From a virus (lineage: Duplodnaviria; Heunggongvirae; Uroviricota; Caudoviricetes): a stretch of DNA of 42,541 nucleotides. The stretch lies in IMG/VR virus record IMGVR_UViG_2529293215_000009, one strand, 5' to 3'. The notes beneath the pieces were generated by a model. That model did no database searches. It was not told where the DNA came from and saw only the letters and a list, made by a program, of their open reading frames with translations. Shown here piece by piece: positions 2,911-7,984 of this stretch. Made by a program: the position numbers and the translations under genes. Position 1 is the first letter of the stretch. Every line of letters begins with the position of its first letter.

Positions 2911-5001
2911 ATGTATGTCATTGCAAAAGAACTGATTGGCGCGCCCGGAATGCCTGCTACAACAAAAGGTATTCGCCAGGCATTACAACGTTACGTACAA
3001 GGGAAAAGCTGTTGTTCCCGTCGTCGCTCAGGCTCTAAAGCAACTGAATACAGCATCGACTGTTTACCTGAAGTGACGCAGCAGGCATTACGTGAACGTT
3101 ATGCCCTGCAACTGATGACGCAAAAAGCCGATGAATCACCGGCTCCGGTAGTGACAAAGGCCAGGCGCTCACCTGCCGTGGTTGATGCGGTGGAGGCATA
3201 TCGCGGATCACCACAACTGATGGTCGAACGCCTTAATGCCCTGACTGAAAACCAGCGCCAGGTGGCTGATGCACGAATCGCGATCGTCAGCGAAGTTCTG
3301 AAAGTCGCGCAACAACCTGGTTTCAGCTGTGCGAAGGCTATCCGGTTTATCGTTGACAACCTGGCACGTTCGCAGCTGGACGAGCGCATTGTGGCAATGG
3401 TTGAGACGGCGAACGCCAAAAAGGGAAACAGCCGCGCGTTAAGTGAAATCACGCTGAAACGCTGGATTGCGGCCTTTAACAAGGCGCAGAACGCCGCTGA
3501 ACGCCTGCTTTTACTGGCACCGGGTAAGCGCCAGGAAATAAAAGCCGAAGATATTAACTGGCTGCCCGAATTTCTGGCGCAGTATCGCCAGTCAAACGGC
3601 CGACCAATGACCGAGGCTTACGAGGATTTTGTCGCTGAATGGCAGCACCGGCACGCTGATGAGCCTTATATGCTCGATATCATGCCGTCTTATGACACCA
3701 TTCGCCGCGCAATGAAGAAACTGCCGGAAGTGGTGAAACAAAAAGGCCGGGTGACCGGCAGTGAATACCGCCAGCTTGAGGGATTCACGCGCCGCGACTG
3801 GTCAAAAATGCCGGTGAATTATGTCTGGATTGGTGACGGTCACGGCATGAAGCTGAAATGCGCACACCCGGTTCACGGTCGGCCATTTGCACCGGAAGTG
3901 ACCTTTGTTATCGACGGTGGCACGCGCTTTGTGGTGGGCTGGAGCCTTGACCTGGCTGAAAATGTTTTCGCCGTAGCCGGTGCCATACAGCACGGCATTC
4001 GCCATCACGGCAAACCGTTTCTGTATTACTCGGATAACGGCTCCGGGGAAACCGCCGACATCCTGGATAAGGAGGTTGTGGGGATACTGCCGCGACTGGG
4101 GATTAATCACCCGACCGGGATTGCCGGTAATCCGCAGGGACGAGGCATTATCGAACGGCTTAACCGCACATTACCGATGCGCATAGCCCGTAAATACCGC
4201 ACCTATTTCGGGAAAGGTGCAGATCGCGAGACGTTACGCAAAACCAACCGCGATTTACGCTCGGCATTTACTGCCCTGCAACAGGGCAAACGGCTGAACG
4301 CCCGGCAGCAGTCAGCGATGCGTGATTTACCGTCCTGGTCTGAACTGATTGATGCCATTCGTGATGGTGTTGAGTGGTACAACAACCGGCCGCACGATGA
4401 ATTACCGGTGAAGCCGAACGGCAAGCATTACAGCCCGGCGGAGTTCAGAAAAAAACGCCTGGCGGAAGAGGACACGGAAATTGAATGGCTGTCCGATGTG
4501 GAATTGCGGGACATGTTCCGGCCGATGGTGGAACGCCCTGTAAGACGCTGTGAAATACGCTGGCTGAATAATATTTACTACGCGCCCGAGCTGCGTGATG
4601 AGCATGGCCGCAAGGTGCTTATCAGCTATGACATTCATGATGCCGAACGAATTACCGTACGTCGCCTGGATGGCAGCGTGATTTGCGAGGCGGTATGGGA
4701 CGGTAATAAACGCGAAGCCTTCCCGGTTAGCGCGGAATACTACAAACAGCAGCAACGCCTTAAAGGCATGCGTAAACGCGCAGAGGAAAAAATCCGTGAT
4801 GCCGAGGATGAGGTTGTCAACGTGCTGGAGCACAAGCCGCAGGAGCCCTGGCTGGAAAACATCTATCGCCCGGTAGGTAATACGGTGGCCGTTCAGCAAC
4901 CTGCCGTTGATGATGAGCCTGATGAAGAATACGAGCGCAATTTCCAGCGGGGATTGCAGTTGCTCGAAGCGAAATTAAAAGAAAATGACCCGCTGGCCTG
5001 A
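2911..5001 (+). CDS. A: Mu-type DDE transposase A
   Basis: 696 aa after ner; DDE-like blocks NYVWIGDGHGMK, LYYSDNGSGE, GNPQGRGIIERLNRTL; size and position as MuA. Confidence 0.9.
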   Translation: MYVIAKELIGAPGMPATTKGIRQALQRYVQGKSCCSRRRSGSKATEYSIDCLPEVTQQALRERYALQLMTQKADESPAPVVTKARRSPAVVDAVEAYRGSPQLMVERLNALTENQRQVADARIAIVSEVLKVAQQPGFSCAKAIRFIVDNLARSQLDERIVAMVETANAKKGNSRALSEITLKRWIAAFNKAQNAAERLLLLAPGKRQEIKAEDINWLPEFLAQYRQSNGRPMTEAYEDFVAEWQHRHADEPYMLDIMPSYDTIRRAMKKLPEVVKQKGRVTGSEYRQLEGFTRRDWSKMPVNYVWIGDGHGMKLKCAHPVHGRPFAPEVTFVIDGGTRFVVGWSLDLAENVFAVAGAIQHGIRHHGKPFLYYSDNGSGETADILDKEVVGILPRLGINHPTGIAGNPQGRGIIERLNRTLPMRIARKYRTYFGKGADRETLRKTNRDLRSAFTALQQGKRLNARQQSAMRDLPSWSELIDAIRDGVEWYNNRPHDELPVKPNGKHYSPAEFRKKRLAEEDTEIEWLSDVELRDMFRPMVERPVRRCEIRWLNNIYYAPELRDEHGRKVLISYDIHDAERITVRRLDGSVICEAVWDGNKREAFPVSAEYYKQQQRLKGMRKRAEEKIRDAEDEVVNVLEHKPQEPWLENIYRPVGNTVAVQQPAVDDEPDEEYERNFQRGLQLLEAKLKENDPLA

Positions 5002-5071
5002 AATAAAAAATAACCCGAGCGGCGACTCAGGTTATTTGATTAAACAAGGTATCAAATGAGAGGTTAATAAT

Positions 5072-6004
5072 ATGACTGATATTAACGATGTAATCAAGAC
5101 CATTGATGAACTTATTGATGGCGGCGTACTGACGCAGTATGCCATCGCCAGAGAGGCGGGAATTTCCGACGGCACATTATCGGCTTTCCGCAAGGGGAAA
5201 TATAAAGGCGATAACGCCGCTGTGGCTGCTTCCCTGCGTTCCTGGTATGAGAACTGGAATAAACAAAGCGCACTGCCGGAACCGCCGCAGTTTGTGGAAA
5301 CGCAGACAGTTCAGGAGCTGCGCGCACTGTTTCAGGCGGTTCGCCTGATGGGCTGTATTAACGTCATTGTGGGCGTGCCGGGGGTAGGTAAAACGGCCAC
5401 CGCCCGTAATTACTGCCAGGAGCAACCAAACACCTGGATGATCACCCTGTCACCCGCGCACTCCAGCGTCACGGAGTGTCTGCTGGAGCTGGCCGATGCG
5501 CTGGGGATTGATTACACCCGCGCGAACAAAGGGGCATTATCCCGCGCCATCCGCCGTCGCCTGATGGGAACGCGTGGACTGGTGATTGTGGATGAGGCGG
5601 ATCATCTTGGTATTGACGGTCTGGAGCAACTCCGGGCAATTCAGGACGCCACGGGGATCGGGATGGTGCTTATTGGTAACCCGCGCGGATTGTTTAAAGG
5701 TGGACGCCGCGCCTTTGATGATTTATCGCGCCTGTTCAGCCGTCTTGCCCGTACAAAACAACTTCGCAAGGCCAAAAAGGCGGATGTGCTGGCCATTGCC
5801 AGGGCATGGGGTATCAGTGGTGAGGCCGAGCTGGCCGTCATGCAGGCTATCGCTGAAAAGCCGGGAGCGTTACGCGTTCTGACACATACGCTTAACCAGG
5901 CGTGGCTCACCGCCAGCGGTGAAGGTGCGGCGCTGACAGAAAAACATATTAATGCGGCCTTTAAAGAGGTTTATACCAACCCTGAATTACTCTCACAGGT
6001 GTGA
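5072..6004 (+). CDS. B: Mu B-like transposition ATPase (AAA+)
   Basis: 310 aa; Walker A GVPGVGKT, Walker B LVIVDEADHLG; immediately after A. Confidence 0.9.
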   Translation: MTDINDVIKTIDELIDGGVLTQYAIAREAGISDGTLSAFRKGKYKGDNAAVAASLRSWYENWNKQSALPEPPQFVETQTVQELRALFQAVRLMGCINVIVGVPGVGKTATARNYCQEQPNTWMITLSPAHSSVTECLLELADALGIDYTRANKGALSRAIRRRLMGTRGLVIVDEADHLGIDGLEQLRAIQDATGIGMVLIGNPRGLFKGGRRAFDDLSRLFSRLARTKQLRKAKKADVLAIARAWGISGEAELAVMQAIAEKPGALRVLTHTLNQAWLTASGEGAALTEKHINAAFKEVYTNPELLSQV

Positions 6005-6006
6005 TT

Positions 6007-6228
6007 ATGGCGGTATTTTATATTCCTGATATTTACGGACGCTTTTACCTGGTTAATTTCGATAACGTGAAGGTGATTTCACTGGCCGAAAATAAAGAAT
6101 GTGGCGATTTACTTTTTGAATTTAATGACCGCACACGAATGGTGATATCTGCCGGACTTGATCGCGAAGGTGCGACAGAAGTTTACAGCGGAATATGCCG
6201 TTCTGTTGGTGCGAAACAAGTCAGCTAA
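6007..6228 (+). CDS. hypothetical protein (accessory early region)
   Basis: ORF 6001..6228; ATG at 6007 just after B stop; no recognisable motif. Confidence 0.4.
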   Translation: MAVFYIPDIYGRFYLVNFDNVKVISLAENKECGDLLFEFNDRTRMVISAGLDREGATEVYSGICRSVGAKQVS

Positions 6229-6240
6229 ATGAGGTGTTAT

Positions 6241-6495
6241 ATGAATATGCAATCCTGCGGTAACAAAATGAATTTATTCGACTCCCTGAACAGCGCGCGC
6301 CGTCTGACCGAACTTGCCGGTGCGGTACTGGAACGCAGTAAGCGCTACCCACAACGTTTTGCACTGAAAACCACGCCGCCGGTAGGCAACGTGCAGGGAA
6401 CCGGTGAAATTGAAATCACCATACAGACCAACGGCCTGCGCCGCCGTGTGAAGGCCACCCGCATCAGCGGCTGCACGGTTTACTGGGAGGTGTGA
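6241..6495 (+). CDS. hypothetical protein (accessory early region)
   Basis: ORF 6229..6495; GAGGTG then ATG at 6241. Confidence 0.4.
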   Translation: MNMQSCGNKMNLFDSLNSARRLTELAGAVLERSKRYPQRFALKTTPPVGNVQGTGEIEITIQTNGLRRRVKATRISGCTVYWEV

Positions 6496-6496
6496 G

Positions 6497-6778
6497 GTGA
6501 AAAAAAATCTCATTGCATGGGCGTGGTCGAGTGGTCTTATTGAGTTTGGTTACGTCCTGCCGGAAGGTGCATTGCCGATAGTTGCCGGAAAGCCTGCCAC
6601 GGTACGGCATGTGATTGAGGTTATGGCGCGTCATGGACGTGATGAACAGGAGCAGTTACTGGTTCCGGGGATACCGGAAGCGGTGACGGAGGAAGAAGCC
6701 TTTAATGCCATGATTCGGTTCTGCCGTGAGGTCAGACGCCGGGTCAGTTATCCAAACAGAACGAGGACCAGAGGATGA
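6497..6778 (+). CDS. hypothetical protein (accessory early region)
   Basis: GTG start preceded by GGAGGTGTGAGG; 93 aa; tightly packed in operon. Confidence 0.4.
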   Translation: MKKNLIAWAWSSGLIEFGYVLPEGALPIVAGKPATVRHVIEVMARHGRDEQEQLLVPGIPEAVTEEEAFNAMIRFCREVRRRVSYPNRTRTRG

Positions 6779-7047
6779 GTAAAGTCGTACGCATTATTTT
6801 CGAATACAAGGAGCACGTTATCCATAAAAACGCTGATGGAACAGTGCGCATGGGGGTAAGTCTGGACATACGTTCAACCGGGATAAAGCAGAAAGGTGAT
6901 GGACCCGCCATGATTTTTGGGGTGGTTATGCTCGCGGAAAGCAGAGACTTTGCTGAACTTGTGGCAATGAAAGCCAGTGCGCTCATGAAAGATATGAGCA
7001 TGCGTTCCGGGGTTATTAAAGGTAATGAATTTAATCAGCAGGGGTAA
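6775..7047 (+). CDS. hypothetical protein, paralog 1 of a tandem pair
   Basis: N-terminus MSKVVRIIFEYKEHVIHKNADGTV parallels the next ORF. Confidence 0.45.
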   Translation: MSKVVRIIFEYKEHVIHKNADGTVRMGVSLDIRSTGIKQKGDGPAMIFGVVMLAESRDFAELVAMKASALMKDMSMRSGVIKGNEFNQQG

Positions 7048-7051
7048 TTCC

Positions 7052-7345
7052 ATGAGCAAAGTACGCGTTATTTTTGAATTTAAGCATGTTTCGCATGACG
7101 AAAAACCGGCAGGCAATGACTGTGTTGAAGTGCATGAAAAGATTGGTGTGGATGTAAAAACAGAACGTGATACGAATAACAGGCCGACGTCACTCTGTGA
7201 CGTTTATGCAAGTATTCTCCAGTATCACAGCCCTGAAATTATTCAGTTTCTCTCAGCGGAATTTCAGGCATCTGTACAGGCTTTTGGGGCGGATGCCATC
7301 ATTAAACGCCACCGCGTGCATAAAGCATCAGGCACACTGCAATAA
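7052..7345 (+). CDS. hypothetical protein, paralog 2 of a tandem pair
   Basis: ORF 7025..7345, ATG at 7052; N-terminus MSKVRVIFEFKHVSHDEKPAGNDCV parallels the previous ORF. Confidence 0.45.
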   Translation: MSKVRVIFEFKHVSHDEKPAGNDCVEVHEKIGVDVKTERDTNNRPTSLCDVYASILQYHSPEIIQFLSAEFQASVQAFGADAIIKRHRVHKASGTLQ

Positions 7346-7356
7346 GGAAAAACAAA

Positions 7357-7887
7357 ATGGCAAAACGCGTTACAAAATTAAAGGCCGCAGCAGAGGCGGC
7401 ACCGCAGACCCGTGAAGAGGTCAGCCGCGATATCCGCACCCTGGGCGATATTCAGCGAGAGGCGCTGCGCCTGGAAACAGCGATGAATGATGAAGTGGCA
7501 GAAATCACCGCCCGTTATACGCCGCAGATTGAAAACCTTAAAAAAGAAATCAAAGTGCTTTTTAAGGGGATTCAGGACTGGTGCAAAACCAACCGTGATG
7601 AGCTGACGAACGGCGGCAAAACCAAAACTGCCAATCTGACCACCGGAACGGTGTCATGGCGACTGGGGAATCCATCATGCAGCGTCAGTCGTGATGTGGA
7701 AGGTGTGATTGAAATGCTGCGCCGTATGGGCCTTGAGCGTTTTATCCGCACGAAAGAGGAAGTGAACAAGGAAGCGGTCCTGGCGGAGCCGGATGCGGTG
7801 AAAGGGATTGCCGGTATTAAGGTGAATAAAGGCGCTGAAAGTTTTTATGTCGAGCCTTTTGAACAGGACGCCGGACTGAATAAATAA
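7357..7887 (+). CDS. gam: host-nuclease inhibitor Gam (Ku-like DNA end-binding)
   Basis: 176 aa; RLETAMNDEVAEIT, NRDELTNGGKTKTANLTTGTVSWR, LERFIRTKEEVNKEA closely match Mu Gam. Confidence 0.9.
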   Translation: MAKRVTKLKAAAEAAPQTREEVSRDIRTLGDIQREALRLETAMNDEVAEITARYTPQIENLKKEIKVLFKGIQDWCKTNRDELTNGGKTKTANLTTGTVSWRLGNPSCSVSRDVEGVIEMLRRMGLERFIRTKEEVNKEAVLAEPDAVKGIAGIKVNKGAESFYVEPFEQDAGLNK

Positions 7888-7984
7888 CACCGCATTAATC
7901 AATTAAATATCACTTCGTTTTAATTATGGCGCTCGCGTCAGGGGACTGCCTGCGCCTGTAAACTGAAAATAAGGAACAGGATAT

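Follow-up and report, generated by a model that had tools for sequence, protein, structure and literature searches.

Probable lineage-specific tandem duplication of a small early gene upstream of gam in Mu-like prophages of Escherichia coli

The early region of Mu-type phages, with Kil, Gam and GemA, is dispensable and host-directed. In Mu it runs from B through kil and several small ORFs to gam. One of the small ORFs encodes gp7 (E6; Mu_7, AAF01086.1; phrog_10252), an uncharacterized early protein of 87 aa, which is similar in size and location to the products of the two genes considered here, ORF1 and ORF2. The N-terminus of gp7, MAKVIIEIK, resembles the start of both. A weak full-length match to the ORF2 family profile, phrog_2230, was obtained (E 0.009), and hhalign placed gp7 collinear with the ORF2 family over 61 columns. 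In Mu, however, the gp7 gene does not adjoin gam, from which it is separated by E7 and E8. Membership of gp7 in either family is not supported, the hhalign scores against the ORF1 and ORF2 families (11.6 and 13.7) being at the level of noise, with probabilities <1%, and the Smith-Waterman z-scores reaching at most 1.3.

A divergent Mu-like phage in IMG/VR (L046) has its own tandem small genes, at 3515-3730 (71 aa) and 3730-3960 (76 aa), directly upstream of gam and following a homolog of the 93-aa gene that precedes ORF1. Their products begin MSKIVIELK and MAKQVITITL, and they are alike only at the start. The resemblance to ORF1 and ORF2 is confined to position and the N-terminal motif. A relationship of these genes, and of the small genes of the L081 locus, to the pair had been suggested by visual inspection; it was dropped when hhalign and Smith-Waterman shuffles gave no significant similarity to ORF1 or ORF2. 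The presence of tandem small genes in the slot upstream of gam may be a recurring pattern. The closest known systems also include the beta-hairpin/helix oligomerization subdomains of the M20 peptidase dimerization domain, the RNA polymerase alpha N-terminal domain and phage tail-terminator proteins.

Both genes fall into PHROG families of unknown function. ORF1 matches phrog_4107 over 90 of 90 positions (E 1.1e-61), and ORF2 matches phrog_2230 (E 1.3e-40), a profile to which each of the 13 sequences in the wider ORF2 family described below is also assigned, homologs from Salmonella and Serratia included. No cross-matches were found, either of ORF1 to phrog_2230 at E <= 10 or of ORF2 to phrog_4107, and PHROGs keeps the two as separate families. 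The comparisons presented here join them into one small family specific to Mu-like phages of Enterobacterales, a link that PHROGs does not record and that is new but minor.

The locus in the early operon

The DNA analyzed, referred to as the window, is a stretch of 42,541 nucleotides that represents an Sp18-type Mu-like prophage of E. coli. Positions 6000-7900 match, with 96.5% identity, a "Bacteriophage Mu-like phage" that lies within an Stx2c phage, and the 571-nt region containing the pair is 100% identical to chromosomal sequences of O157:H7, O111:H8 and other strains. The features of the region are collected in Table 1. The assignment of the MuB-like ATPase is supported by a 310-aa gene of MuB type (PF09077), which occupies that position in related prophages. 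ORF1 and ORF2 are neighbors on one strand of the early operon, between kil and gam. The first-pass annotation had described them as adjacent ORFs with similar N-termini, and both of the N-termini it quoted are present at the starts of the genes listed in the table.

Table 1. Genes and repeated segments in the early region of the window
Feature	Coordinates	Strand	Basis of assignment
696-aa ORF, transposase-sized	2911-5001	+	MuA by position only
MuB-like ATPase	5072-6004	+	Match to RefSeq WP_000129790.1, "AAA family ATPase"
75-aa ORF	6001-6228	+	phrog_3375
Kil-like	6229-6495	+	phrog_2679
93-aa early gene, upstream context	6497-6778	+	phrog_1518
ORF1, 90 aa, MSKVVRIIFEYKEHVIHKNADGTV...	6775-7047	+	phrog_4107; RefSeq WP_000049432.1, hypothetical protein
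Repeat copy 1, encoding the conserved N-terminal beta-strand of ORF1	6787-6810	+	DNA comparison
ORF2, 97 aa, MSKVRVIFEFKHVSHDEKPAGNDCV...	7052-7345	+	phrog_2230; RefSeq WP_000049304.1, hypothetical protein
Repeat copy 2, encoding the conserved N-terminal beta-strand of ORF2	7061-7084	+	DNA comparison
gam, Mu Gam-like	7357-7887	+	PF07352, E 1.5e-41

The genes are closely packed. The start codon of ORF1 and the TGA stop codon of the 93-aa gene before it share the sequence ATGA (6775-6778), with a Shine-Dalgarno-like GAGGA at 6763-6767. The TAA stop codon of ORF1 (7045-7047) is followed by a 4-nt spacer and then by ORF2, whose ATG lies 7 nt downstream of an AGGGG (7040-7044). The spacer between ORF2 and gam is 11 nt. 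The longest mechanical ORF begins at 7025; the start of ORF2 is nevertheless the ATG at 7052, since the 294-nt RefSeq gene starts there and the homologs all begin MSK or MSNK. For both ORF1 and ORF2 the RefSeq coordinates agree exactly with those in Table 1. Neither a sigma-70-like promoter nor an intrinsic terminator was found on the + strand between 5900 and 8100. As read from the sequence, ORF1 and ORF2 would be transcribed together as part of the early operon (A, B, kil ... gam), with tight translational packing.

The 93-aa gene carries the PHROGs label "host nuclease inhibitor" and is without a Pfam or NCBIfam match. It is independent of the pair: two loci lack it and keep ORF1 and ORF2 (L133, L134), and four others have it without ORF1 (L125, L127, L046, L080). 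Farther upstream, on the - strand at 5002-5072, Rfam gave a match below threshold to STnc370, an sRNA of enterobacteria (29.2 bits, E 0.51; the gathering score is 54). The match coincides with the gap between the 696-aa ORF and the MuB-like gene and is probably due to chance.

Similarity between ORF1 and ORF2

When the two proteins of the window were compared by BLASTP, only N-terminal residues aligned, with 12 identities in 17 positions between residues 1-17 of ORF1 and 1-15 of ORF2 (E 9e-4). N-termini of the MSK type are common in E. coli, which would favor the view that the two genes are unrelated and came to have a common N-terminus by convergence or chance, MSK being a favored start of well-translated genes and the remainder a generic amphipathic beta-strand. 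The restriction of the direct alignment to 17 residues fits that view, as does an identity past residue 18 that is at the random level. Several wider comparisons make it very improbable. ORF1 aligned with an ORF2 allele of a second class, class B, over 86 columns (residues 1-80 vs. 1-84) with 23% identity (E 5e-6). With shallow profiles of the ORF1 and ORF2 families, hhalign gave a probability of 81% over 45 columns (E 1.3e-5). Addition of five distant ORF2 homologs raised this to 92.9% over 66 columns, residues 1-67 of ORF1 and 1-71 of ORF2 (E 3.7e-7), with a score of 40.2. In a null distribution from shuffles of the ORF1-family columns (2 x 200), the maximum was 20.9 when the Met column was held fixed and 22.1 when MSKV was held fixed. 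The alignments over these 66-86 columns are collinear, and the predicted order of structural elements is the same in the two proteins, although the model of ORF1 is of low confidence.

Removal of the N-terminus, 17 residues from ORF1 and 15 from ORF2, left a weak signal, which stayed in the same register and scored 20.0 compared to a maximum of 17.4 in 150 shuffles. Beyond the N-terminus the matched elements are the second strand, in which GVSLDIRSTG is aligned with v-v-V, and the start of a helix of the form "DGP + aromatic + small + hydrophobic", in which DGPAMIFGVVML is aligned with DGPQDLYAHIL. Smith-Waterman comparisons of ORF1 with each member of the ORF2 family gave z-scores of 2.6-9.6, and the top value came from the class-B allele within its own phage lineage. 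Against the five homologs from Salmonella and Serratia ORF1 also scored above shuffled sequences; the empirical p was <= 0.002 in three comparisons, and 0.01 and 0.016 in the remaining ones. On these sequence comparisons the similarity is above chance and goes beyond the N-terminus, the part outside the N-terminus being weak. Pairwise alignment had been named in the first-pass annotation as the check on paralogy, with chance-level similarity in the first few residues only as the contrary outcome; what was obtained is similarity that is significant both pairwise and by profile against an empirical null. Its statement that the genes diverge in the C-terminal half is correct as to divergence and understates the extent, since the two proteins have little in common from about residue 18 onward.

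At the DNA level, the N-terminal similarity corresponds to a 24-nt direct repeat, the copies of which are 83% identical and are spaced 274 nt apart. A degenerate 27-mer derived from it occurs at these two sites only in the 42.5-kb window, with 0 expected from 100 shuffles. The idea that the repeat serves as a regulatory element, in DNA or RNA, was dropped, as the motif is found only at the two gene starts, no Rfam family scored above threshold, and the + strand of this region has neither promoter nor terminator.

The repeat, together with the abrupt fall in identity from 71% over residues 1-17 to less than 20% beyond them, is also what would be seen if ORF1 and ORF2 were old paralogs whose 5' ends had been homogenized by gene conversion, the N-terminal identity then reflecting DNA exchange rather than constraint on the protein. 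Several codons for identical N-terminal residues, however, differ in the third position (AGT/AGC, GTC/GTA, TTC/TTT and CAC/CAT), which indicates that the identity has been kept at the protein level and does not result from recent gene conversion or DNA copying; any conversion must be old. The N-terminal strand is also the most conserved segment across the ORF2 family, with V6, F8 and F10 invariant, and purifying selection is sufficient to account for its preservation. Homogenization by conversion is considered very improbable.

The relationship of ORF1 to particular members of the ORF2 family is seen mainly in the N-terminus. ORF1 and the ORF2 that resides with it have in common the signature MSKV-R-IFE-K/N-HV-H, compared to MSNK-QVIFTFE in the homologs from Salmonella and Serratia. 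From about residue 18, over 73 aligned columns, ORF1 is 8-18% identical to the ORF2 homologs and about equally distant from all of them, so that no reliable place can be given to it within the ORF2 tree. A nesting of ORF1 among the E. coli alleles is suggested by the signature and by the top Smith-Waterman score, to the extent that sequences equidistant in their other 73 columns can do so.

Distribution, mosaicism and origin of the pair

Of 5426 complete E. coli genomes, 226 (about 4%) carry the pair, scored as a match that covers 80% or more of its 571 nt; O157:H7 and O111:H8 strains are among them. Among the IMG/VR loci with a close Gam, ORF2 is present in 41 of 41 and a full-length or near-full-length ORF1 in about 37 of 41; the remaining loci are cut at a contig end, have a degraded copy, or are missing ORF1 (L021). 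In four further sampled contexts, including those that lack the 93-aa gene upstream, ORF1 is separated by 4 nt from a 97-aa ORF2, which gam follows. Relatives of ORF1 were found only in E. coli, with identities of at least 73%, or at least 79% in IMG/VR, and word- or pattern-limited searches revealed none outside the Sp18-like clade of this species.

ORF2 has a wider range. An exhaustive HMM search of 1.84 billion representatives with the ORF2 profile yielded only 11 clusters and did not recover ORF1 at E <= 0.001. Five of the 11 are full-length distant homologs, about 30% identical, from Salmonella enterica and Serratia. All five are single-copy genes of Mu-like prophages, directly upstream of either gam or a gene encoding DUF3164. 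The latter, a 212-aa protein (PF11363), replaces Gam after the ORF2 homolog in Mu-like prophages of Salmonella (3303-3941 in L125 and L126; 2803-3441 in L130), which indicates that the association of ORF2-type genes is with the position rather than with Gam. ORF2 without ORF1 also occurs in some prophages of E. coli, including that of strain CI5 and the L021 locus. The ORF2 family is therefore very small, and its members come from Mu-like prophages in E. coli, Salmonella and Serratia. A 90-aa gene upstream of two of the five, in Salmonella, was examined as a possible ortholog of ORF1 and rejected, as it proved to be homologous to the 93-aa gene (6497-6778).

The outer junctions of the pair are those of the single-copy gene. 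ORF1 keeps the upstream junction seen in Salmonella, the ATGA overlap with the 93-aa gene, and ORF2 keeps the short spacer to gam. This is exactly what a tandem duplication predicts. The occurrence of a single ORF2-type gene across the outgroups, with ORF1 limited to an E. coli clade and, in every context examined, beside ORF2, makes a lineage-specific duplication the best reading. ORF1 and ORF2 are thus probably diverged paralogs, which arose by tandem duplication in this lineage and separated rapidly. The ancestral state would have been a single ORF2-type gene directly upstream of gam; duplication would have taken place in the Sp18-like lineage of E. coli, and the upstream, derived copy, ORF1, would then have changed rapidly everywhere but in its N-terminal beta-strand. 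That the duplication occurred in situ is inferred from the distribution and the junctions, the 24-nt segment being the only trace left in the DNA. The first-pass annotation had proposed local duplication followed by diversification and had suggested a survey of copy number in related prophages. The survey bears the proposal out, with ORF2-type genes in single copy in Salmonella, Serratia and some E. coli, and ORF1 specific to one clade; homology, the single-copy outgroups, the kept outer junctions and, on a low-confidence model of ORF1, the same predicted order of elements are all in agreement with it.

Both members are real genes under purifying selection, and both change faster than gam. Among alleles taken from Sp18-type IMG/VR loci, dN/dS was 0.30 for ORF1 (17 alleles, dN 0.065) and 0.35 for ORF2 (23 alleles, dN 0.150), compared to 0.09 for gam (dN 0.017). 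The ORF2 alleles form two deeply diverged classes, A (HDEKPAGNDCVEVHEKIGVDV) and B (HEVKPAGNDSQEITEGVTATV), with dN 0.30 and dS 0.87 between them in otherwise near-identical prophages; the loci concerned are, besides the window, L006, L009, L010, L021, L022, L027, L028, L030 and L035. Either class is found with either ORF1 allele type, beside a gam that stays 94-100% identical. This free reassortment next to a near-constant gene indicates that the kil-gam interval is a recombination mosaic, and the pattern of the allele classes points to a recombination hot spot.

In such an interval ORF1 might have come from elsewhere, as a very diverged allele, or xenolog, of another Mu-like phage that was recombined in next to the resident gene. 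The reassortment of ORF2 classes with ORF1 is consistent with an arrival of this kind, as are the coming and going of the 93-aa upstream gene without regard to the pair, the replacement of gam by DUF3164 in the Salmonella relatives, and the nearly equal distance of ORF1, outside its N-terminus, from all ORF2 homologs. The exact preservation of the single-copy gene's outer junctions by the pair is evidence to the contrary, and in its N-terminal signature ORF1 resembles the ORF2 that resides with it rather than the Salmonella and Serratia homologs. A phage with an ORF1-type gene as its sole copy was not found either, an absence that is not strong because the searches for ORF1 were word- or pattern-limited. 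An origin by import is therefore considered unlikely, and duplication within the E. coli lineage is preferred. The locus would then be a clean case of lineage-specific tandem duplication and rapid divergence in the mosaic accessory region between kil and gam of transposable phages.

Predicted structure, possible role and decay

The AlphaFold2 model of ORF2 (pLDDT 84) has strands E4-21 and E24-39, which form a long hairpin, followed by helices H48-58 and H60-77. That of ORF1 is of low confidence (pLDDT 55) and has strands E4-18 and E24-38 and a helix H57-73. The predicted order of elements is alike, a long beta-hairpin and then one or two helices, with the reservation that attaches to a low-confidence model of ORF1. 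Each product, of about 10 kDa, is predicted to consist of such a hairpin packed on one or two helices. The positions that are invariant in the ORF2 family are V6, F8, F10, I55, L56, E70 and G79, that is, a hydrophobic core, one Glu and one Gly, and the variable parts are the tip of the hairpin and the C-terminus. The pI is 9.45 for ORF1 and 6.58 for ORF2, with net charges at pH 7 of about +2.7 and -1.0. A role as DNA mimics was dropped from consideration, since at these pI values neither protein is strongly acidic.

Searches of function-oriented libraries with the two proteins, their neighbors and the 13 ORF2-family members gave nothing informative as to function. With PADLOC there was no match for either protein at E <= 1. 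Pfam gave no match for ORF1 or ORF2, and isolated matches at E >= 0.054 among the 13 members of the ORF2 family. NCBIfam gave none for ORF1 and one chance-level match for ORF2 (E 0.07, 13 bits compared to a cutoff of 114). Neither protein matched any anti-phage defense or toxin-antitoxin model in these three libraries. A sequence-profile search of the PDB gave chance matches only, to a designed TIM barrel (E 4.5e-4, 30 residues) and to eL31 (E 0.12), and BFVD had no match that would give either protein a function. In the literature, searches on the accessions, the PHROG identifiers and the functions of the Mu early region turned up nothing about these genes. As it stands, the pair represents ordinary phage gene-family evolution, with no functional lead from the libraries tried.

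The invariant positions, being a hydrophobic core with one Glu and one Gly, suggest that the proteins are more likely to be binders or scaffolds than enzymes. The variable hairpin tip and C-terminus, and the location of the genes in a dispensable, host-directed early region, favor the same conclusion. A more specific proposal is speculative and, on balance, somewhat doubtful: the products may be non-essential early accessory proteins that oligomerize through the N-terminal strand and bind a target of the host or of a competitor. The conserved N-terminal edge strand would form homodimers where the gene is single-copy and possibly an ORF1-ORF2 heterodimer here, and the fast-evolving hairpin tip and C-terminus would make contact with the host or competitor target. 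Alleles of ORF1 and ORF2 reassort freely, which counts against close co-evolution of a heterodimer interface in their variable parts.

A bolder form of the proposal, for which the prospects are poor, is that ORF1 and ORF2 belong to a new family of early effectors of Mu-like phages, acting for example in anti-defense or superinfection exclusion as beta-hairpin dimers. Duplication in the E. coli lineage would then have supplied either a heterodimer or another specificity, and an arms race with a target in the host or a rival phage would account for the hypervariable hairpin tip and the two deep allele classes. Should the genes modulate the host or counter its defenses, the pair would offer a natural experiment in sub- or neo-functionalization.

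Some copies of the genes are no longer intact. In several database variants ORF2 is frameshifted into the overlapping ORF at 7167-7415, in the +1 frame (P0053, P0061, P0062 and P0050), and two loci have a truncated ORF2 or ORF1 (L042 and L022). These frameshifted and truncated copies indicate that the pair is decaying in some prophages. On one contig from E. coli, residues 1-49 of ORF1 are joined in frame to residues 80-97 of ORF2 in a 67-aa fusion (P0036). Its junction, "FG", falls at an 8-nt sequence, TTTTGGGG, that is common to both genes in the same codon phase (6915-6922 and 7282-7289), and the fusion looks like the product of a microhomology deletion, rather than of recombination between equivalent positions of the paralogs.
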